Origin: an endosymbiont of Galathealinum brachiosum | GTDB lineage: Bacteria > Pseudomonadota > Gammaproteobacteria > SZUA-229 | DNA length: 64,000 nucleotides | Assembly (NCBI GenBank): GCA_003349885.1 | Contig: QFXC01000011.1 | Location: forward strand, 517,355 to 581,354 | Direction of reading: 5' to 3' | Part shown: in pieces, positions 9,770 to 64,000 of the stretch | Numbering within the stretch: position 1 is the first letter of the stretch | Layout: every line of letters starts with the position of its first letter | Program-made: the position numbers and the translations under genes | Notes under the pieces: model-generated | Told to the model about the DNA's origin: nothing | The model's input: only the letters and a program-made list of their open reading frames with translations | Databases searched by the model: none

Positions 9770-10063
9770 TTAAAGCCAGGCCTGCACATTATGCGCTTCA
9801 ACCAGGTCGACGAACCCATCATAATCTGTGGTTTCAACTCCTGCAATTAAATCATCAACTCCTCGTGCTTTAATGTCGGCACTAAGTGCATATACCTTGC
9901 AGGTTTTTAGTAATGATTCAACAAGATAAGATTTGTTAGTGTTACCTGTGGCGGCATAAACAGCGTCTTCAAATAACAGGACTACATCGTCAGCACTTAC
10001 AAAACGTATGCAGCTTTCCAGGCTTGATGTGTTAAAGGGGGATTTATTAATAGTATGTAACAT
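9770..10063 (-). CDS. DsrH/TusB family sulfur relay protein
   Basis: 97 aa with a conserved N-terminal Cys (SLESCIRFV). Sits in the E-F-H operon order. Confidence 0.7.
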   Translation of the reverse strand: MLHTINKSPFNTSSLESCIRFVSADDVVLLFEDAVYAATGNTNKSYLVESLLKTCKVYALSADIKARGVDDLIAGVETTDYDGFVDLVEAHNVQAWL

Positions 10064-10085
10064 AAATATTTCTCAAAATATTGTT

Positions 10086-10484
10086 TTAAAAAGATAAAAT
10101 AGTATCCTGCTGTTTCATCATTTCTTTTAGTTGATCTGTAGACAGTGCTCTGGGATAAACAGTTTCTTCTGTTTCATCATCTTCACCAACAGAGATGAGT
10201 TGATCTGTAGAAATATTTCTATCTTTAAGTGAATCAGAGTCTACATATACGTTTTTAACATCCCAGTCAGCAAGGGCGCCCAATGATGCGCTGAATCCTT
10301 TAATTCCCAGGTCTTTAGTGTCCTGTCCTTTTTTAACTGAGAAAACACCATCATCAATAAAAACGATAGATAAATCCATTTCAAAAGAAGCCATGATAAA
10401 CATCACCTCTATAGCCTCCTGTACATAAATGGTTCCATGAGGGGCTTTACGTAATGTGATCATAAGTTTGTGAGCATCAGACAT
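10086..10484 (-). CDS. DsrF/TusC family sulfur relay protein (with a C-terminal acidic insertion)
   Basis: Aligns to TusC (RKAPHGT..., VFIDDGVF) and has no active-site Cys, as in TusC/DsrF. It carries a ~13-aa acidic insert (VGEDDETEETVYP) not seen in E. coli TusC. Confidence 0.65.
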   Translation of the reverse strand: MSDAHKLMITLRKAPHGTIYVQEAIEVMFIMASFEMDLSIVFIDDGVFSVKKGQDTKDLGIKGFSASLGALADWDVKNVYVDSDSLKDRNISTDQLISVGEDDETEETVYPRALSTDQLKEMMKQQDTILSF

Positions 10485-10493
10485 TTTTTCTCC

Positions 10494-10850
10494 TTAATCA
10501 CCAAAAGTAACTAATCGGTCAGAGTTTTGTATCATATTCGCCAGCTGGCCTAGCCCAGAAATACGTGTGTTTTCTATTAGAATATCTTCGGTCATTCCTC
10601 TACGCTTTGCAGCTGCAATACAAACTACAATATCAACTCCCTGACTGCCAACTTCTGACCAGCGATTTGAAATGTGCCGGTCATCCTGGGGTGGCTCCAT
10701 CATTTTGGTAACATTGTTTACACCATCATGATAAAAAAATATGCCAGTTATCTCGTGTCCCTTCTTTATAGCAGACTGTACAAATTGATAGGCGCTATCA
10801 GCAGCCTGATGATTGTATGGTCCCTCCTGAATTAAAATGGTTAATTTCAT
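10494..10850 (-). CDS. DsrE/TusD family sulfur relay protein
   Basis: 118 aa with the conserved Cys loop (VDIVVCIAAAKRRG), as in TusD/DsrE. Confidence 0.75.
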   Translation of the reverse strand: MKLTILIQEGPYNHQAADSAYQFVQSAIKKGHEITGIFFYHDGVNNVTKMMEPPQDDRHISNRWSEVGSQGVDIVVCIAAAKRRGMTEDILIENTRISGLGQLANMIQNSDRLVTFGD

Positions 10851-10873
10851 TATAAAACCCCTTAGTTATAAAA

Positions 10874-11212
10874 TTACTGGTACGCTTTGTCGCATCGCGC
10901 AGCCATAATAAAATCGTTAATAAATAAGCCTGACAGGCTATGTGTCCACCAGCTTAAATTTACTGTTCCCCATTCAATACAAATGCAGGGATGGTGGTTC
11001 TCTTCTTCAGCAAGGTCGGTCACCATATTGGCAAATTTCATGGCTGACCTGAAATCTTTAAATTTGTAATTTTTTATTATTTTTTGGCTGTCTTGCTGGT
11101 AATTAAGAGTCCAGCCGTTGAGTTCCCTCAGGTGTTTTTCAATTTCTATTGTAGACAGTGCTAAACTATCTTTGTCGCAAGTTTTTAATGACTGTTCAGT
11201 TAAAGTGATCAT
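10874..11212 (-). CDS. phhB: pterin-4a-carbinolamine dehydratase
   Basis: 112 aa with the PCD signature EEENHHPCICIEWGTVNLSWWTHSLSGLFINDF ([E]xxxHHP...W...H...D). Confidence 0.8.
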   Translation of the reverse strand: MITLTEQSLKTCDKDSLALSTIEIEKHLRELNGWTLNYQQDSQKIIKNYKFKDFRSAMKFANMVTDLAEEENHHPCICIEWGTVNLSWWTHSLSGLFINDFIMAARCDKAYQ

Positions 11213-11319
11213 GAGAAGGTCTCTTTATTCTAAAGGGAGCATATAAGTCGCTTTTTATTATTAGAAATGCCCTTTAATATATTAGTAGAAAATTAGAAAA
11301 AAACGAATTTAAAGAAAAG

Positions 11320-11697
11320 ATGACAATGAAATATATGGCCGAGGTGGAAGAATTTCGTGACAAACTAAAGTCAGGTGGCAAGCCATTTTTATTAAGAAAT
11401 AGACTGCCAGCCGTAAAAGTAGAGCTAGAGTTTGAAGGGCTACTTAATGGTATGCCTGTGGTATGGCACGCCTGCATTAGAACGGTGGAAGATTGTTCGT
11501 TGAATAATCAGGTTTCTGATGATCCAAAGCAATTTATAAAAATTGAAATTATTGACGGTAGACATGAACTTGAAGTTGCTTTAAATCTTAATGTCATTGA
11601 TATGGCTACGCTAGAGCGTACTATAATTATGATTAGAAAATATAAGCGATTACAGCCCGGATGCCATGAATATGGTGCGCGAAGTAAGACAGAATAG
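11320..11697 (+). CDS. hypothetical protein (125 aa)
   Basis: ORF only. Immediately upstream of, and on the same strand as, the ParA-like gene. Confidence 0.3.
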   Translation: MTMKYMAEVEEFRDKLKSGGKPFLLRNRLPAVKVELEFEGLLNGMPVVWHACIRTVEDCSLNNQVSDDPKQFIKIEIIDGRHELEVALNLNVIDMATLERTIIMIRKYKRLQPGCHEYGARSKTE

Positions 11698-18308: not shown

Positions 18309-20513
18309 ATGTATGAATCTTTTTATGGGCTTACGGAAAAGCCATTTACATTATTACCTGATCCGGACTATTTATATCTGAGTCCTAAACATCAACGGGC
18401 GTTGACGCTTCTTGAATATGGCATGATGAATCAGGCTGGCTTTAGCGTAATCTGTGGTGATACAGGGGCTGGTAAAACAACCCTGATTCGACGTCTCTTG
18501 ACTGAATTGGGTGATGACACCAAAGTCGGTCTTATAAATAATACCCATCACTCATTTGGTGAATTGCTTAACTGGGTTTTGATGGCATTTGGCATTGATG
18601 GTGACGGCAAGAGCAAAGCCCAGATGCACCAGATGTTCATCGACTTTCTGATTGAACAGTATGCTCAGAATAAACACACAGTTTTGATAGTTGATGAAGC
18701 GCAGAACATGAAGGCCGATACATTAGAAGAACTGCGCATGTTGTCGAATATTAATTCAGATAAAGATCAGGTGTTACAGGTTATTCTGGCGGGGCAACCT
18801 GCACTGCGTGAAACTTTACGCCAGCCTGAGTTAATGCAGTTTGCGCAGCGTATAGCCGTAGATTATTACCTTGAATCACTGAGTGTTGAGGAAACAAATG
18901 CTTATATTCATCACCGACTAAAGGTTGCGGGCACTGAAAATACGATTTTCACGGATGCCGCCTGTGAAGCAATATTTAAATACAGTGGTGGGACACCGCG
19001 ACTAATTAACCTTCTTTGTGATACAGCACTTGTATATGGTTTTGCTGAGCAAAGCGAAGAAATAAGCGAACAATTAGTACATGACGTAGTGCGCGAGCAA
19101 CATAGCAATAGCATTATACCTACGTTTAACACGGATCATTCTGGTTCGGTTTCCAATCCAGCTAAGAATAGCCCGGATCCTGCCCCATTAGTTGATGTGC
19201 CGATTACACAAAGTGATCAGAAAATAAGTGAGCAGAGTGCTGCTTATGAAAAAACAGAAAAAAAGGTCGTAGTTGCTGAGCCACCAGTTAACGAAGAAGA
19301 TAGAGCAGAGAAATCAGCTGAATTACTTCAGCAAGCCAGTCAACAGACAGCCAGTGTGGTCGGTAGTGCTGAGTCGACAGCTCCAGTTTCTCATACAGAG
19401 TCTTTGTCTGGTATAGAAAAGGCACAGATTAGAAATACGGCTAATGACACTTCAAAAGATGAATCTAATGTAACACCGATAAAGGCTGTGCTGTCTGAAG
19501 CGGAAGAAGTAATTGAAGAGTTAGATGCGGCTGAATTAGAGGATGATACAGATCAGCAAGTTGCGTCTGACGTTAAAGAGCCTGAGCAGGCGAGATCAGA
19601 TGAGACGTTTAAAGAGCCAGTTGATCAGGATCAGGAAAGCGGGTCTGGTGAAAGCTCACCAGAAGATATCCTTAGCCATAATGCCCCTGAAATGGGAAGG
19701 CGAAAAGAGGATGTTGAAGAAATAGCACCATATATGTCACGTAGAAAGCGTGATAACGAAGATGACGATGTTTATCCGATTGTGCATATAGAAGAGAATC
19801 CGAATAAGGGATTCAATATGGTAGTGATTGGCGTTGTTGGGGGAATGTTTGTTGCTTCCATTATAATGATGATAGCTGCCTGGACGATGTTTGGATCAAA
19901 AGATAATATTGATCAACAGGCTGTACAGAAAAACTTAAATCAGCAATTACAGTTAGAGGATGAAAGTCGTGAGCTTAAAGCATTGCAAAAAGAGCGTGAT
20001 GCAGCTTTAGCCGTAACACGCGCGCTTGAAAGAGAGCGTGATGCAGCGATAACTGCAGCAAAAGCACAGGAAGAAATTCGTGCAGCCGAGTTACGTGCAG
20101 CCGAGATATTAGCTGAGCAGCAACGTAGAGCGGATAAGAAATTACAGCAGGCTAGAGCCCGAATAAGAGAGGCTGAACTAGCTGAGTCTAAGGCACTGGC
20201 ACGAGAACATGAAATGCAGCTAGCAGCTGAAAGAAAAGAGTCTGAGTTAGAAAATGAGCGTCTTAGGCTGCTTCGTAAAGAACGGATAAGATTAGAAGCT
20301 CTTGCAGTTGATGAAGAAATGGCCGCAATACGTTTGAAAGAAAAACAAAGCCTTATAGAAGAGTCAGAAGTAGTTGATGAAGTAGTTGATGAAGTAGCGG
20401 ATGAAGTAGCGGATGAAGATAAAGTCCAGACAAAACCCGAAGAAGCTAAGAGTTTTTCATCAAATCCATGTAATAGTCCTTCAGCAAAATTTTTGTCTAC
20501 CTGTAAAAAGTAA
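18309..20513 (+). CDS. ExeA/GspA-family AAA ATPase fused to acidic linker, TM helix and TolA-like periplasmic coiled coil
   Basis: N-terminal FYGLTEKPFTLLPDPDYLYLSPKHQRALTLLEYGMMNQAGFSVICGDTGAGKTTLIRRLL (ExeA/MshM-type Walker A) with Walker B LIVDEAQN. A long acidic low-complexity region is followed by a TM helix (VVIGVVGGMFVASIIMMIAAW), an Ala/Glu/Arg-rich coiled coil and a VDEV tandem repeat. Confidence 0.65.
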   Translation: MYESFYGLTEKPFTLLPDPDYLYLSPKHQRALTLLEYGMMNQAGFSVICGDTGAGKTTLIRRLLTELGDDTKVGLINNTHHSFGELLNWVLMAFGIDGDGKSKAQMHQMFIDFLIEQYAQNKHTVLIVDEAQNMKADTLEELRMLSNINSDKDQVLQVILAGQPALRETLRQPELMQFAQRIAVDYYLESLSVEETNAYIHHRLKVAGTENTIFTDAACEAIFKYSGGTPRLINLLCDTALVYGFAEQSEEISEQLVHDVVREQHSNSIIPTFNTDHSGSVSNPAKNSPDPAPLVDVPITQSDQKISEQSAAYEKTEKKVVVAEPPVNEEDRAEKSAELLQQASQQTASVVGSAESTAPVSHTESLSGIEKAQIRNTANDTSKDESNVTPIKAVLSEAEEVIEELDAAELEDDTDQQVASDVKEPEQARSDETFKEPVDQDQESGSGESSPEDILSHNAPEMGRRKEDVEEIAPYMSRRKRDNEDDDVYPIVHIEENPNKGFNMVVIGVVGGMFVASIIMMIAAWTMFGSKDNIDQQAVQKNLNQQLQLEDESRELKALQKERDAALAVTRALERERDAAITAAKAQEEIRAAELRAAEILAEQQRRADKKLQQARARIREAELAESKALAREHEMQLAAERKESELENERLRLLRKERIRLEALAVDEEMAAIRLKEKQSLIEESEVVDEVVDEVADEVADEDKVQTKPEEAKSFSSNPCNSPSAKFLSTCKK
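20372..20419 (+). repeat. 4 x 12-bp tandem repeat (gtagttgatgaa / gtagcggatgaa) inside the ExeA-like CDS
   Basis: Direct tandem copies encoding (V[VA]DE)x4. A slippage-prone in-frame repeat. Confidence 0.7.
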
Positions 20514-58115: not shown

Positions 58116-59504
58116 CTATAATTCAATACACTGATTATATTCAGCTATAACGGGTTTTATATTTAAATCTGTATTTAATTTTTCGGCAAGTATTTTTTGA
58201 GCCTCAGGCTCACCATGAACCAGTACTAATTGTGGGCGATTTTTAAAATTTTTATACCAGTCAATCAGTCCCTGTTGATCGGCATGAGCTGATAAACCTC
58301 CAGGCGTTGTTACTTTTGCATTTATTCTGATTTTTTCACCCCATAGTGTTAACCATTCTGCGCCATCAACCAATGACCTTCCCGGTGTATTTCTAGCCTG
58401 AAAACCGACAATAATTACATGGCTTTGATGGCGCCATAAATTATGTTTTAAGTGATGTTTGATTCGACCACCTGTGCACATGCCGCTACCGGCTATAATG
58501 ATCGCACCAGATTGAATGCGATTTAAAGCCATTGAATCTTCAGTGGATGAGGTCATTGTTAGATTAGGTAGATTTAAAGGATTGCCACAGTTTTGTGCAT
58601 CTTTACGTGCATCATCCTCGTATATAGAAGAGTATTTTGAGTAGATATTTGTGGATTTTATTGCCATCGGGCTATCCAGAAAAATTTTCCAGTTGTCGAG
58701 TTGCCAGTCATCATAATGCTTATTAAAGCAGTATAATAATTCCTGAGTACGCCCGACTGTAAAAGCGGGAATTAATATGTTACCTCGCTGGCTATGAGCA
58801 TTGCGTATAGTTGATCCTAACTCTTCCCAGGTATCGTCCCAGTTTCTGTGTAGGCGGTCTCCATAAGTGCTTTCCATTAAAACAATATCGGCTTTAGTCA
58901 GGCAGGTCGGATCTTTTAGTATTGGAGCTCCGGCATGTCCAAGGTCACCGCTAAAAACAACTTTCTTTGAATGATTATTTTCATTGAGATCAAGCTCAAC
59001 TATACATGAACCTAAAATATGCCCGGCATCGTGAAATTCAAGCGTTACACCGGACATTAAAGTGGTTTTATGAGTATAGGGGACAGGCTTGAAAAACCGT
59101 AAGCAATTACGTGCTTGCTGTTGTGTGTATAACGGCTCGACTAATTCTAATCCCTGACGTTCACGTTTTTTATTTTCCCAGAATGCACCCCGTTCATTTA
59201 AATAACCCGCATCCTCAAGTAAAACTTCGCATAAATCTATTGTTGCAGGGTGAGCGAATATTTCACCTTTAAATCCTCTCTCTATTAATAAAGGGAGTTT
59301 CCCGCTATGGTCAAGATGAGCATGACTTAAAATTACAGCATCAATTGATGCGGGATTAAAAGGAAAGTCATCATAGTTTTTCTGGGCCTGTTCGTAATCG
59401 CCCTGAATAAGCCCGCAATCCAGTAATATTTTATGGTCATTAATCTGTATAAGGTGGCATGAGCCTGTAACGTACTGTGTTGCACCTAGGAATGTAATAT
59501 TCAT
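58116..59504 (-). CDS. MBL-fold metallo-hydrolase, RNA-metabolising beta-CASP family
   Basis: HAHLDHSG motif II, a beta-CASP middle region and a C-terminal HGEPEAQ motif. Confidence 0.65.
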   Translation of the reverse strand: MNITFLGATQYVTGSCHLIQINDHKILLDCGLIQGDYEQAQKNYDDFPFNPASIDAVILSHAHLDHSGKLPLLIERGFKGEIFAHPATIDLCEVLLEDAGYLNERGAFWENKKRERQGLELVEPLYTQQQARNCLRFFKPVPYTHKTTLMSGVTLEFHDAGHILGSCIVELDLNENNHSKKVVFSGDLGHAGAPILKDPTCLTKADIVLMESTYGDRLHRNWDDTWEELGSTIRNAHSQRGNILIPAFTVGRTQELLYCFNKHYDDWQLDNWKIFLDSPMAIKSTNIYSKYSSIYEDDARKDAQNCGNPLNLPNLTMTSSTEDSMALNRIQSGAIIIAGSGMCTGGRIKHHLKHNLWRHQSHVIIVGFQARNTPGRSLVDGAEWLTLWGEKIRINAKVTTPGGLSAHADQQGLIDWYKNFKNRPQLVLVHGEPEAQKILAEKLNTDLNIKPVIAEYNQCIEL

Positions 59505-59676
59505 AATTAACCTGAAGAGCTCGTAATCGCAACAGAAGAAGATATATTAAGTGTGGCATAAAATGGCCTTACTTCAAGTTTTGTTGTGTATTGCATTGCC
59601 CGGTAGTTACAATCGGGTCTATAATGAATGGCCGTTTCGGTATACTATTCACGAAAGACCATTGCATGGGTTTATT

Positions 59677-59883
59677 ATGTCTGATCTGGATCAAGAGTTA
59701 TTGCGTAAGAAATTAGATGAGTTACTCCTTGAGCATCGTGATCTAGATGATGTAATACATCGCTTTCATATGACAGGTGGTCTGGATCAAATGCAAATCC
59801 AGCGCTTGAAAAAACGTAAGTTAGTATTGAAAGAGTTAATTGTGAAAATTGAAGATCGGTTAATACCAAATATTATTGCCTGA
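59677..59883 (+). CDS. DUF465/YdcH family small protein
   Basis: 69 aa from the ATG at 59677: LDQELLRKKLDELLLEHRDLDDVIH...RLKKRKLVLKELIVKIEDRLIP. The ORF-track start at 59551 is probably an upstream extension. Confidence 0.55.
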   Translation: MSDLDQELLRKKLDELLLEHRDLDDVIHRFHMTGGLDQMQIQRLKKRKLVLKELIVKIEDRLIPNIIA

Positions 59884-59932
59884 ATCAGATTGCAATAACC
59901 TGATATAAAATTAAAAGTTTTCCAGCAATATA

Positions 59933-61657
59933 TTATATTTTTGAGCTGGACAGCTGAAAGCAGACATTAGACGGTTCATTATGAATCAGTTGTAATTGAT
60001 ACCCATTTCTTTCAGCTAGTTGTGCAGACTGATATAGACCAATTCCATATCCATCTTTAGATGGCAATATTTGTTTAAATAATACGTTTGTTTTTGAGAC
60101 GGGGACAGGGTCACCATCATCATAGACCGTTATAACTGGTTGGCCTTTTTCAAGTTTGATGGTGGTAGTAATTTCAGTTTCTGGTCTTGTGCGGCGTTTG
60201 TTTCTGGCGTTTTCAAGCAGATTTTCAAGAACAGTATCAAAGACATCAGTATCGATAGAGGTATTTTGATCTGTTTCTCCAACAAACTGAATATCACGTC
60301 CATGATATCGGCTTTGAAGTTCTGTCCACCAGACATCCATTTGTTTGAAGCTTTTACCAGTGTCAGTTTTAGTCTGTAATTTATCAAGTGTGTTTTGTAA
60401 ACGTTGAGATAATATAGGTAGTTGTTTGCTAATAAGTTGATGGCTTTCAGCCGGATCATCTGCGGCATGCACAACACCAGTTAATGCCTGTAGAGACTGT
60501 AAAATGTTTTTAATATCGTGTGTTAGTTTTGATCCGGTTTCATAAACCGCTTTTAAATGTGTCTGGTTTTTAAGCGTTATTTCACGTAATTTTGAATTAT
60601 AAAAATAACTCATTAAATGCATAAGTAATTGCGCATGAATTTTTAAAGCTGAGCCCATAGGAATATGGCTATATAGAATCATCCTGATTCCATTATCTTC
60701 AAATAATGTTTGTTGTGCACTTACCTCACCGTAAAGGTTCTCGCTTTTATTGTCTGACCATTTAACGCCGCTTACCCAGGAGAGAGTTAATAATTGTTTA
60801 ATGCTATTTTCGAGATATAAATCAGGTGTTATTTTTTTATTCTGCCCCAGCAATGATGTATGTTTAACCCAGTTTTCAAATGGATTGCCGATATTTAAAA
60901 TGTGTTGTTCCCATATTTGTCCTATGCCGGCAAGACCATGTCTGGGTAACCATATAAGACTCAGAATAATAAAGAAAACACCAATGGATAATGCCGTAAT
61001 TAGTAATGACTGGAGATAGTGAATGTTTGAAGTAAAGCTAATTAATATGCTGGTGACATAAAAGCTAAATAACCCAAAACTGATTAAAATACTGTGTAGG
61101 TAATCAATTTTGACAGAACGAACTTTTTTACAAGGCCATAAAATAAGTAAAGCACAGGCAAACAATAAAACATAAAAAATAATTTGTTCGAGTTCATGAT
61201 CAAGTACATTTAAATGAAATAAGCGAGGTGTCAGTATAAGGCTAAGTTGTAGAAATAAAATTACAGCTGAAAGCGCATATAGGGTTCGTTGAAAGCCATT
61301 AACAAGAGCGCTTCCGCTAGTTAAGCCAATTAATAAAATGATCCATAGCGCGATAAACCAGTCACCGAGAAGCAAATACAGCGCTATGTTTAGGAGTAAA
61401 ACAGGTATTAATGTCTTTAGGTGTATTTCTTCAGTCGCATTTAAGGCGGGTTGCCAGAGTAGAAAAAAACCAATGTGTGCGAGTAGAAGTGCTGAAACAA
61501 GAGGGCTGTTTTCCGTTGGTTGGTGTAATGCCAGGTGTAGCAATAACAGCATTAACCCAAGGTTAATAAACTCAAACCGGGTGCTGGTGGTGACTCTGTA
61601 AATATTAGGTTTATTAAACATATATTGTTGAAACATTGTCATTTGTTGATATTTCAA
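59933..61657 (-). CDS. multi-TM sensor histidine kinase (PilS-like architecture)
   Basis: ~7-8 N-terminal TM helices, a cytoplasmic linker, H-box THDIKNILQSLQALTG and HATPase_c (DDGDPVP...DGYGIGLYQSAQLAERNGYQL). No cognate response regulator is adjacent other than glnG. Confidence 0.65.
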   Translation of the reverse strand: MKYQQMTMFQQYMFNKPNIYRVTTSTRFEFINLGLMLLLLHLALHQPTENSPLVSALLLAHIGFFLLWQPALNATEEIHLKTLIPVLLLNIALYLLLGDWFIALWIILLIGLTSGSALVNGFQRTLYALSAVILFLQLSLILTPRLFHLNVLDHELEQIIFYVLLFACALLILWPCKKVRSVKIDYLHSILISFGLFSFYVTSILISFTSNIHYLQSLLITALSIGVFFIILSLIWLPRHGLAGIGQIWEQHILNIGNPFENWVKHTSLLGQNKKITPDLYLENSIKQLLTLSWVSGVKWSDNKSENLYGEVSAQQTLFEDNGIRMILYSHIPMGSALKIHAQLLMHLMSYFYNSKLREITLKNQTHLKAVYETGSKLTHDIKNILQSLQALTGVVHAADDPAESHQLISKQLPILSQRLQNTLDKLQTKTDTGKSFKQMDVWWTELQSRYHGRDIQFVGETDQNTSIDTDVFDTVLENLLENARNKRRTRPETEITTTIKLEKGQPVITVYDDGDPVPVSKTNVLFKQILPSKDGYGIGLYQSAQLAERNGYQLQLIHNEPSNVCFQLSSSKI

Positions 61658-61754
61658 CAGAAGCTATCTTTAAATTGTCGAAATATCAACATAAATTAAT
61701 GCAAAAAATCACCTTTATTAGCTAAGTTATTGAAATATATGTGCTATATATTTA

Positions 61755-61771
61755 TGGCATGGGCTGTGCAA
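61755..61771 (+). promoter_or_regulatory. sigma-54 (-24/-12) promoter upstream of the pilin gene
   Basis: TGGCATgggctGTGCA: GG-N10-GC spacing is exact. 54 bp upstream of the ATG at 61824, and a GGAGAAAG RBS follows. Confidence 0.6.
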
Positions 61772-61823
61772 TATATCCATCAAAGCATTATTTTAATTAT
61801 AAAATCTTTCTGGAGAAAGAATC

Positions 61824-62375
61824 ATGAAAAGACAATCAGGTTTCACATTAATCGAAATAGCCATTGTACTTGTTATTATCGGTTTGTTATTGGGTGGGGT
61901 ATTAAAAGGTCAGGAAATGATGACCAATGCTAAGATCAAGCGTATTTCTAATGACTATAACGGTATTTCAGCAGCAACATTTTCATATCTTGATCGTTAT
62001 TCTTCATTCCCGGGCGATGATCCAAATGCAGCAGCGCGTTGGGGTGGTGCAGTTGTAAGTGGTGACGGCGATGGCCTTATTGATGCCGGAGAGCAACCTG
62101 ACGTTTGGGAGCACTTAAGAGCATCTGGTCTGGTTTCAGGCACGGGTACTACTAATCCCACTCATGCATTTGGTGGTATTATTCGAGTTCAGCAAAATGG
62201 TGCAGGTTTAACGGGCACAGTAATCTGCATGTTAAATATGCCAGGTAAAACAGCTGAAATTATAGACAGACAGGTTGATGACGGTAATGGTAATACCGGT
62301 GAGTTTAGACAAACTGTTAACTCTGTTACTTATGATCAGAATGTTACCAATCTGGAAGTTTGTAAAAAGCTTTAA
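61824..62375 (+). CDS. type IV pilin-like protein (prepilin-type N-terminal methylation domain)
   Basis: MKRQSGFTLIEIAIVLVIIGLLLGG matches the class III signal (G-1/F+1/E+5). 183 aa. Two C-terminal Cys residues (VICM...EVCKKL) are consistent with a D-region disulfide. Confidence 0.75.
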   Translation: MKRQSGFTLIEIAIVLVIIGLLLGGVLKGQEMMTNAKIKRISNDYNGISAATFSYLDRYSSFPGDDPNAAARWGGAVVSGDGDGLIDAGEQPDVWEHLRASGLVSGTGTTNPTHAFGGIIRVQQNGAGLTGTVICMLNMPGKTAEIIDRQVDDGNGNTGEFRQTVNSVTYDQNVTNLEVCKKL

Positions 62376-62395
62376 GCGCACACTGTAAATTAGCA

Positions 62396-62424
62396 CTTAA
62401 AAGGCCTGCATTAGCAGGCCTTTT
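62396..62424. terminator. bidirectional rho-independent terminator between the pilin gene and glnG
   Basis: aaaaggcctgcattagcaggcctttttt. Confidence 0.85.
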
Positions 62425-62452
62425 TTGTTTGATGTTTATAATATAAAAAACT

Positions 62453-63853
62453 CTATTCCATACCAAGTTCTTTGATTTTGCGGGTTAAGGTGTTTCGTCC
62501 CCAGCCAAGCAACTTGGCTGCCTCCTGACGTTTGCCTCCGGTTTTAGCCAGTGCGGCATCAATGAGTATCTGTTCAAATCTTGGCTGAATCTCAGCTAGA
62601 ATATCTTCTTTTCCCATATTTAATTGAGCCTCAGCCCAGCTTAGTAGTCCGTCCTCCCAGTTTTGAGAAGGTCTGTCCATTGGGCTAACACTTTCAGGAG
62701 AAAGCTCGGGAGGCAGATCAGACATATGTATTTCACGGCCAGAAGCCATAACTGTAATCCAGCGACAGCTGTTTTCCAGTTGTCTTACATTGCCCGGCCA
62801 GTCAAGGCTGGATAAATAAGCCTCAACATCACTGAGCAGTATTTTGGCTTCTACCTGAATTTCTTCAGCAGCCTGCTGTAAAAATAAGTGTAACAATGCA
62901 GGAATGTCTTCTTTGCGTTCGCGCAATGGTGGAATCTGGATGCGAATAACATTGAGACGGTGAAAAAGGTCTTCTCGAAACAGGCCTTCTTTAACCCGTT
63001 GTTGTAAATCCTGGTGGGTCGCAGTAATAATTCGAACATTAGATTTAACCGGAGTATGCCCACCAACACGATAAAACTGTCCATCAGCCAGGACCCTTAA
63101 CAACCGTGTTTGTAAATCTGCAGGCATATCACCGATTTCATCGAGAAACAGGGTGCCGCCATCTGCCTGTTCAAATCGACCTCTACGCTGAGATGTCGCG
63201 CCTGTAAACGCGCCACGTTCGTGCCCGAATAATTCTGACTCTAATAAGTCCTTAGGGATAGCGGCTGTATTAATGGCAATAAACGGATGGTTTGCTCGGG
63301 GGCTATGTTTATGTAATGCACTTGCTACCAGTTCTTTTCCTGTGCCTGATTCACCATTTATCAGAACGGTGATATTGGACTTTGATAAACGACCAATTGC
63401 CCTAAATACTTCCTGCATAGAAGGGGCTTCACCAATAATATCTGGTGAGCCAATTTCCTGAGATGTGTTTTTATTTGCATACTCATCACTTTTTTTGCAG
63501 GCGCGTTGGGTTAAATCTACAGCATCATCAATATCAAAAGGTTTAGGCAGGTACTCAAAAGCGCCACCCTGATAGGCAGAAACAGCACTATCAAGATCTG
63601 AATGAGCCGTCATGATAATGGCCGGAATTTCAGGGTGTTTTTCGTTTAAGATGCTTAGAAATTCGATGCCATCCATACCGGGCATGCGGATATCAGTAAT
63701 GATGACATCGGGTTTGGAATTGTTTAAATATTCCAGTGCAGCATCAGCGGTTTCAAAACTACTTACTATAAAGTCTGCAGATTTCAATGCTTTTTCAAGC
63801 ACCCAGCGAATGGAAGGGTCGTCATCTATAACCCATACATTATGCTCGCTCAT
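62453..63853 (-). CDS. glnG: nitrogen regulation protein NR(I), sigma-54-dependent response regulator NtrC
   Basis: 466 aa with REC, AAA+ ([14 protein letters not shown]) and Fis-type HTH domains. Near-collinear identity to E. coli NtrC, including the C-terminal [22 protein letters not shown]. Confidence 0.95.
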
Positions 63854-64000
63854 TTATGTTCTCCAATTTGTTTCTTTCCATTTTTATGATCCTGAGAAGC
63901 AACTGATAAGGGTAAATAAATTGTAAAAATAGTTTCACCGGGGCGGCTGCTCATTTTGATCAGTCCACCATGTTGATTAATGAGTGACTGTGCAATTGAT
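63850..64000 (-). CDS. glnL: nitrogen regulation sensor kinase NtrB, C-terminal fragment (gene continues beyond window end)
   Basis: Minus-strand translation ...QHGGLIKMSSRPGETIFTIYLPL... matches the NtrB HATPase C-terminus. Its TGA stop overlaps the glnG ATG (ATGA). Confidence 0.8.
   Translation of the reverse strand, partial: SIAQSLINQHGGLIKMSSRPGETIFTIYLPLSVASQDHKNGKKQIGEHK

Follow-up and report, generated by a model that had tools for sequence, protein, structure and literature searches.

The question raised by this locus is which activator controls a type IV pilin gene that lies between a divergent, polytopic histidine kinase gene and glnLG. The genes occupy one end of the window, which here means the whole 64,000-nt stretch analyzed (contig QFXC01000011.1 of the Galathealinum brachiosum endosymbiont, a genome of 3.77 Mb in 14 contigs; PMC6194059). 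An initial annotation of the window had described the pilin gene, a sigma-54 element, the divergent kinase, a terminator and NtrC, all of which are present where it placed them, and had left two options, namely control of the pilin in trans by an unlinked PilR or an orphan kinase. The first option, regulation in trans from an unlinked gene, is preferable, but the candidate activator is not a generic PilR; it is a PrsR/NtrC-like response regulator that, in related genomes, heads an operon for filament machinery resembling the mannose-sensitive hemagglutinin (MSHA) system.

The arrangement that we favor, and hold to be rather probable, joins a sigma-54 promoter, upstream dyads, a dedicated regulator and the kinase into one circuit of an MSHA-like system whose locus is split in the lineage of the window. 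The pilin gene (61824-62375) would encode the major pilin of an MSHA-like type IV filament and would be transcribed from the sigma-54 promoter, with activation from two or three TGTYGA-N4-TCRACA dyads located about 100-130 bp upstream, probably by IHF-assisted looping. The activator would be a dedicated NtrC-family response regulator, distinct from NtrC, and the divergent kinase, with its eight transmembrane (TM) helices, would be the sensor of that two-component pair. Ancestrally, the regulator gene would have stood first in the machinery operon and the kinase gene at its far end, by the pilin gene; a rearrangement in the lineage of the window would then have parted the operon from the kinase-pilin pair, which was kept beside glnA-ntrBC. 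The system appears to be confined to some sulfur-oxidizing Gammaproteobacteria, namely uncultured lineages, Thiotrichales/Beggiatoaceae and the frenulate tubeworm symbiont.

The locus was compared with 80 loci containing kinase relatives (one genome per species, plus several metagenomic contigs), which we divided into clade A (window-like, pilins 54-94% identical), clade B (pilins 36-45% identical) and clade C (Beggiatoaceae). The features of the pilin gene and its upstream region, in the order in which they are discussed, are as follows.

61824-62375, plus strand: prepilin gene, 183 aa, with a 6-aa leader and cleavage between G6 and F7 (open reading frame (ORF), family models and AlphaFold2 (AF2) model)
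61812-61815, plus strand: Shine-Dalgarno sequence GGAG of the pilin gene, read from the sequence
61755-61770, plus strand: predicted sigma-54 -24/-12 element TGGCATGGGCTGTGCA, kept in position before the pilin gene in clades A and B
61676-61691, no strand assigned: putative upstream activator site (UAS) 2, TGTCGAAATATCAACA (alignment and motif count)
61644-61659, no strand assigned: putative UAS 1, the perfect dyad TGTTGATATTTCAACA (motif count and clade A conservation)
61626-61641, no strand assigned: putative degenerate third dyad TGTTGAAACATTGTCA, a weak candidate with only the left half-site intact
61721-61735, no strand assigned: conserved block GCTAAGTTATTGAAA between the UAS and the promoter, kept in the six closest loci

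The element TGGCATGGGCTGTGCA is a good match to the -24/-12 consensus, and its end lies 53 nt upstream of the pilin ATG. With one mismatch allowed, the pattern TGGCAY-N5-TTGCW occurs 6 times in the window versus 6.6 times expected, so the motif alone proves nothing and conservation was used as support. A -24/-12 element is located 37-118 nt 5' of the pilin ATG in every clade A and clade B locus, amounting to about 45 related loci with pilins as low as 36% identity. In clade B, the pilin gene comes third in an operon (ABC-2 permease, p247, pilin, ABC ATPase), and the element, TGGTATGGTAATTGCT, is found inside that operon, in the short gap directly 5' of the pilin gene, which indicates that the promoter tracks the pilin gene rather than the operon start. 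The region thus combines a GG-N10-GC consensus match, an upstream activator site and conservation among orthologues. From its sequence, the pilin gene is very probably sigma-54 dependent, in agreement with the RpoN promoter proposed by the initial annotation. Just 5' of the -24 element, clades A and B also share a CTATAWAA box, which reads GTGCTATAT in the window (61742-61750) and GCTATATAA in clade B, where it lies about 10 nt upstream of the -24 element.

Alignment of the intergenic regions revealed two 16-bp dyads of the form TGTTGA-N4-TCAACA in the kinase-pilin gap, spaced by 32 bp from center to center. Dyad 1 is perfect and centered at about -130 relative to the predicted transcription start near 61781, and dyad 2, which has one mismatch, ends 63 nt before the -24 element. 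The dyad pattern was matched four times across the window, where 0.28 matches are expected, and this gap contains two of the four. Dyad 1 is kept in all clade A loci. In clade B, two abutting dyads (TGTCGA-N4-TCGACA and TGTTGA-N4-TAGACA; as a class, TGTYGA-N4-TMRACA) precede the pilin promoter by about 65-72 nt, and over both clades the dyad UAS is preserved with 0-2 mismatches. Among the type IV filament and histidine kinase loci scanned, the combination of this UAS with the promoter occurs only 5' of the pilin gene. The conserved block GCTAAGTTATTGAAA is a possible IHF site; its reverse strand, TTTCAATAACTTA, fits WATCAANNNNTTR, which we take to be the IHF consensus, with one mismatch. The degenerate third dyad abuts the kinase start, and together with dyad 1 it lies less than 40 nt from the kinase start codon (61622-61660). 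A regulator bound at these sites might, in addition, act as a repressor of the kinase gene. None of the three candidate kinase starts is preceded by a recognizable Shine-Dalgarno sequence.

The position of the pilin gene against ntrC suggests an alternative, in which NtrC itself activates the pilin promoter and the kinase is a second NtrC input, coupling pilus production to nitrogen status. The features on this side of the pilin gene are as follows.

62399-62424, no strand assigned: bidirectional intrinsic terminator hairpin in the pilin/ntrC gap, with an 11-bp stem including 6 GC pairs
62453-63853, minus strand: ntrC (glnG), 466 aa (TIGR01818, 735 bits)
63850-64000, minus strand: 3' end of ntrB (glnL), cut by the window edge (tblastn with the NtrB of the related locus L001)

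The pilin gene and ntrC converge on the hairpin, which is bordered by A and T runs and corresponds to the common terminator described earlier; an Rfam scan of 59400-64000 found no RNA family. The ntrB end is 79% identical to the L001 NtrB across its last 33 residues (tblastn). The adjacent activator is a true NtrC (735 bits versus a TIGR01818 cut-off of 558.6) and the only sigma-54 activator encoded in the 64-kb window, and it was confirmed that no PilR-type activator adjoins the kinase. Of 40 loci, 24 have ntrC at a distance of no more than 6.5 kb, although the kinase-pilin pair also occurs without it. The pilin promoter is found in exactly the two clades with adjacent ntrBC (A and B) and is missing in the clade without, as a role of NtrC would predict, and the kinase has an HDIKN H-box, which is presumably of the general type found in kinases that partner NtrC-family regulators. 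However, the correlation between clades is a single phylogenetic contrast, reducible to one evolutionary event, and the Beggiatoaceae keep the kinase-pilin pair without ntrBC.

Binding-site content speaks against NtrC as the pilin activator. In the relatives, the genes are ordered glnA-DUF4124-ntrB-ntrC, and the glnA upstream region has the glnAp2 layout, with TGGCAC-N5-xTGCA and two TGCACC-N5-GGTGCA sites at about -97 and -67, so NtrC in these organisms has canonical specificity. The core of such sites, GCAC-N7-GTGC with at most one mismatch, is present in 14 of 16 glnA regions versus 3 of 46 pilin regions; it is thus absent from 43 of the latter and does not occupy a conserved position in the other three, and the kinase-pilin intergenic region of the window has no NtrC site. 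The conserved pilin dyads have a different sequence from the canonical NtrC sites, which makes NtrC an unlikely activator, and it was rejected on this ground; moreover, a dedicated sigma-54 regulator is present in the locus of relatives. Nitrogen control through NtrC is therefore improbable, and the relevance to the pilin that the initial annotation had allowed for NtrC is unlikely. By its sites, NtrC is probably a bystander rather than a part of the pilin circuit, and adjacency to glnLG should not be taken as evidence for nitrogen control. Besides glnAp2, many relatives have a sigma-54-like sequence, TGGTTCRnTWnTTGCA, directly 5' of ntrB (L001:4517, L002:2014, L003:6174 and L084:6424); the matching ntrB upstream region of this genome falls beyond the window end.

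The candidate for the dedicated activator comes from the genomic context of the kinase in the relatives. In 38 of 65 loci, the kinase gene is followed by a convergent cluster encoding a prepilin-like protein, four proteins without a family, a GspF-like platform protein and a GspE-like ATPase. The full operon encodes, in order, a response regulator, an AAA_22 ATPase (MshM-like or PEP-CTERM-ATPase-like), a secretin, a TPR protein, the ATPase, the platform protein and p529/p203/p149/p580/prepilin-like protein. The secretin passes the MshL model (TIGR02519; 259 versus 250.2), and the ATPase carries the c-di-GMP (cyclic di-GMP) domain of the MshE type (NF053729; 63.8 versus 38), whereas p529, p203, p149 and p580, as well as p247 of the pilin operon, matched no family. 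The regulator (REC, sigma-54 AAA+ and HTH_8 domains, 477-487 aa) is encoded by the first gene in six of seven clusters, drawn from both clades; in L083 it is encoded at 882-2324, with D67 as the predicted phospho-acceptor, and p529 at 10001-11596. Its sequence retains the acidic pocket, the Asp that accepts phosphate and the GAFTGA motif, and its recognition helix, INRTTLYSR, differs from that of NtrC (WGRNTLTRK). It remains under the PrsR and NtrC cut-offs, with a PrsR score of 335-341 bits versus 502.6 (TIGR02915). Literature searches yielded nothing usable, whether on the consensus of PilR sites or on MSHA systems under a sigma-54 two-component regulator. Judged by its domains and position, this head-of-operon response regulator is the likely partner of the kinase and the likely dyad-binding protein. 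At locus L087, an HNH nuclease and a DNA methylase (L087:1993-3847) stand in place of the regulator and AAA_22 genes, probably as a restriction-modification insertion.

Gene order in the relatives also accounts for the layout of the window. L085 and L088 show the ancestral order: gpsA, spoU, the operon, the convergent kinase gene, the divergent pilin gene with or without ABC-2 genes, ntrC, ntrB, DUF4124 and glnA. In a full locus, about 14 kb separate the regulator gene from the kinase gene; otherwise, the regulator gene lies on a separate segment. In the subclade of the window, there is a break between the operon and the kinase gene, which is then followed by genes for DUF465, a beta-CASP nuclease, msrB and a rhodanese. 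The kinase and pilin genes were left beside glnLG by this split. A relative with the split layout, whose kinase is 74% identical, has the regulator and the machinery elsewhere on the same 437-kb contig. The operon of ABC-2 permease, p247, pilin and ABC ATPase, as at L002:4679-7899, is found in most clade B and C loci, and the clade of the window has lost its three non-pilin genes.

Several observations weigh against the circuit that we favor. The 64-kb window contains neither the regulator gene nor the machinery genes, and a search with the machinery-specific protein p529 gave no match attributable to the Galathealinum symbiont, although the search was word-filtered, only about one quarter of the database proteins are named by source and the proteins of this genome are incompletely indexed; the partner may thus be missing from this genome. 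One machinery cluster (L087) has no regulator, and we infer the pairing of kinase and regulator from co-location only. The coincidence of the promoter with adjacent ntrBC counts on the same side. Finally, clade C keeps the kinase and the pilin without the sigma-54 promoter and without the dyads: the Beggiatoaceae pilin upstream regions have no -24/-12 element and, in many cases, no GG-N10-GC at all. The output of the kinase, therefore, cannot be identical everywhere.

The absence of machinery genes from the window and the outcome of the p529 search would also be expected if the kinase and pilin genes of this genome were relics, the machinery and regulator having been lost and the pilin being silent or assembled by another type IV system. 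The symbiont genome is reported to be more than 95% complete (PMC6194059), and the NCBI matches that were checked for a regulator of the same genome belong to other assemblies. However, both ORFs are intact and retain all family-invariant residues, and the dyads are near-perfect, which argues that the circuit is still in use. In addition, the nearest relatives with the split layout retain the regulator and the machinery elsewhere, and the p529 result is a weak negative given the limits of that search. We regard loss of the system in the symbiont as unlikely and retain the circuit with a split locus, in which the regulator would bind the dyads and would receive phosphate from the kinase.

The pilin has a class III prepilin leader, as the initial annotation had recognized: MKRQSG/FTLIE, with G-1, F+1 and E+5. 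Beyond this N-terminal methylation motif (Pfam N_methyl PF07963, 34 bits versus 21.2; TIGR02532, 26.3 versus 16.3), no Pfam or NCBIfam model scored above its cut-off. The AF2 model (pLDDT 88.3) has a long alpha1 helix (H9-59) packed on an antiparallel beta-sheet of 4-5 strands, and its top Foldseek matches, CofA and TcpA, are type IVb pilins, matched weakly (E 3e-3, TM-score 0.4-0.5). A sequence profile compared with solved pilins showed similarity mainly in the N-terminal helix; MshA (9lab) was matched in the PDB profile search over residues 1-22 only (E 0.008), and no similarity to MshA was found past this helix. Within its own family, the alpha1 helix is near-invariant, and a Cys pair and the loop D-x-Q-x-DDG-x-x-N-x-G are conserved.

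Weak GspG and GspH matches at the N-terminus, GspE and GspF as the best matches of the associated ATPase and platform protein, and a second prepilin with a T2SSG-like stretch in the cluster would suit a pseudopilin of an apparatus resembling the type II secretion system (T2SS), rather than a subunit of a surface pilus. Yet all Gsp scores are under their cut-offs. GspG itself was rejected, at 24.8 bits versus 88.85 (TIGR01710) over the N-terminal 56 residues only, and the fold is also unlike it: the mature 177-aa protein has no GspG-like fold match and is nearest to the type IVb pilins. The pilin does not cluster with T2SS pseudopilins, a grouping that would have overturned the initial annotation. 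The MshL-type secretin and the MshE-type c-di-GMP domain of the ATPase likewise disagree with a T2SS assignment, which we consider very unlikely. The genomic context favors an MSHA-like filament over a T2SS pseudopilus or a type IVa pilus (T4aP), and the protein is the probable major subunit of that filament.

The kinase gene and its main parts are as follows.

59933-61621, minus strand: sensor histidine kinase, 562 aa, counted from the ATG conserved in homologues
60947-61621, minus strand: part coding for the 8-TM sensor domain (hydropathy, AF2 and homologue conservation)
60518-60520, minus strand: codon of the predicted phospho-acceptor His368 (numbered from the ATG at 61621), in the H-box AVYETGSKLTHDIKNILQS, invariant in the kinase family

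The ORF itself (59933-61657, minus strand) reaches a TTG at 61657, whereas the start conserved in homologues is the ATG at 61621. The protein comprises eight TM helices (aa 14-223), a small alpha/beta domain (aa 231-318), DHp (aa 324-416) and CA (aa 425-559). Hydropathy and the AF2 model (pLDDT 75) agree that the TM helices are joined by loops of 3-13 residues and that both termini are inside, so that the description of a multi-TM kinase with almost no periplasmic loop proved accurate. The H-box is THDIKN, all catalytic motifs are invariant among 50 homologues, and the TM domain contains conserved intramembrane H, W, P, R, D and Y residues. The Pfam scan gave HATPase_c as its sole match, and the best NCBIfam match was the PrsK C-terminal core at 45 bits versus a cut-off of 300 (TIGR02916), on which PrsK was rejected. 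The N-terminus matched no Pfam or NCBIfam model and, in particular, none of the MASE or 5TM sensor families, which were thereby set aside together with the objection that they would have posed to the initial annotation.

We used the TM domain alone as a phmmer query against 1.84 billion representatives, which retrieved 201 proteins. Every full-length match is a kinase of 540-615 aa with the same architecture, and the domain is thus a dedicated sensor of one narrow family; the kinase is encoded in roughly 128 genomes. Fold searches of the kinase model returned matches to the kinase core only and were uninformative on the TM domain. On the basis of the family models and the TM-domain search, the kinase was distinguished from PilS, and the earlier designation as a PilS-type kinase does not stand in terms of homology, since the TM domain is confined to its own family of about 560 aa. 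The likeness appears to be functional only, both being polytopic kinases without a periplasmic domain that adjoin the pilin gene they probably regulate.

The kinase and pilin genes are divergent neighbors in 45 of 55 informative loci, with kinase identity down to 32%. The ABC-2 transporter and p247 genes also lie beside the kinase gene in clades B and C and are absent in clade A, which leaves the pilin as its conserved partner. By analogy with PilS, the signal of the kinase may be the inner-membrane pilin pool, a suggestion that is speculative. In a more specific form, which we put forward as possible but doubtful, the 8-TM domain would be an independently evolved sensor of that pool that contacts the near-invariant alpha1 helix GFTLIEIAIVLVIIGLLLGGVLKGQE within the membrane and sets pilin transcription through the dedicated sigma-54 regulator. 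If true, autoregulation of the PilS-PilA type would have a convergent counterpart in sulfur bacteria and tubeworm symbionts, within an MSHA-like system.

In Beggiatoaceae, no response regulator gene adjoins the kinase gene. Instead, it is followed on the same strand by genes for a Roadblock/LC7 protein (MglB-like), a CZB-domain protein, a protein of about 380 aa without a family and a Ras-like small GTPase (MglA-like). This set is located downstream of the kinase gene at L050:2200-4408 and also in L064, L067, L076, L080 and L081, and it looks like a polarity or motility module beside the kinase-pilin pair of these gliding, filamentous sulfur bacteria.

Two further genes of the window belong to families encountered above. 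A 734-aa AAA_22 protein (18309-20513, plus strand; ExeA/MshM-like) is 32% identical to the machinery-cluster ATPase; its gene is flanked by those for an HD-GYP-type signaling protein and pyruvate kinase, and it does not belong to a pilus cluster. The gene downstream of the kinase at 58116-59504 (minus strand) encodes a beta-CASP metallo-beta-lactamase nuclease, for which the best NCBIfam model is the type VII CRISPR-associated Cas14 (381 bits versus 800) and which is probably an ordinary RNase J/CPSF-like enzyme.

The proposed circuit offers a cis-regulatory code (TGTYGA-N4-TCRACA, a spacer of about 63 nt and the -24/-12 element) and a candidate regulator family, and it provides context for several protein families that had none. 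The system is found in giant sulfur bacteria, in vent and seep Gammaproteobacteria and in a tubeworm symbiont; a part of type IV pili in host colonization has been proposed for the siboglinid symbionts (PMC6194059).

Among known systems, the machinery encoded in the relatives is closest to the MSHA cluster of Vibrio and Shewanella, with which it shares relatives of five components: an MshL-type secretin, an MshM-like AAA ATPase, an MshN-like TPR protein, an MshE-type ATPase with a c-di-GMP-binding N-terminus and a GspF/MshG-like platform protein. It departs from that cluster in its gene order, in five proteins without a family and in a pilin that resembles MshA only along the N-terminal helix. 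It also has a sigma-54 two-component regulator of its own, and many lineages encode an ABC-2 transporter in the pilin operon.

Four components have their nearest annotated relatives in the PrsK-PrsR-PrsT system, namely the PrsK core, PrsR, the PEP-CTERM-associated ATPase and PrsT, but all four scores are far under the family cut-offs. The targets of PrsK/PrsR have a motif of 16-17 nt, a sigma-54 element and about 50-70 nt to the start codon, and the PEP-CTERM box is a 17-nt motif ending in TTTACA, sometimes repeated, and separated from the sigma-54 element by a spacer of 62.8 nt on average (Haft et al. 2006, PMC1569441). The cis layout is similar here, with a single target gene, a 63-nt spacer and 53 nt to the start codon. 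The motif, TGTTGA-N4-TCAACA, differs, and the dyads were therefore rejected as a PEP-CTERM box. The target is a prepilin instead of a PEP-CTERM protein, the sensor domain is unrelated and the locus has no exosortase.

The PilS-PilR/pilA system of the Pseudomonas aeruginosa T4aP provides the closest parallel in logic. Both systems have a polytopic kinase without a periplasmic domain, an NtrC-family regulator and a pilin gene with a sigma-54 promoter and a UAS, and in both the kinase gene adjoins the pilin gene. Here, however, the sensor has eight TM helices instead of six and shows no detectable homology in the family models and the TM-domain search. The regulator gene is not adjacent to the kinase gene as pilR is, but lies about 14 kb away at the head of the operon or is unlinked. 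PilR sites are tandem (C/G)TGTC repeats, whereas the UAS here is a 16-bp dyad, and the machinery is MSHA-like rather than of the T4aP type. The logic known from PilSR, in which a two-component system governs the major pilin through sigma-54, would here be built from a non-homologous sensor and a PrsR/NtrC-like regulator, and would serve a divergent MSHA-like filament system that is largely unannotated.

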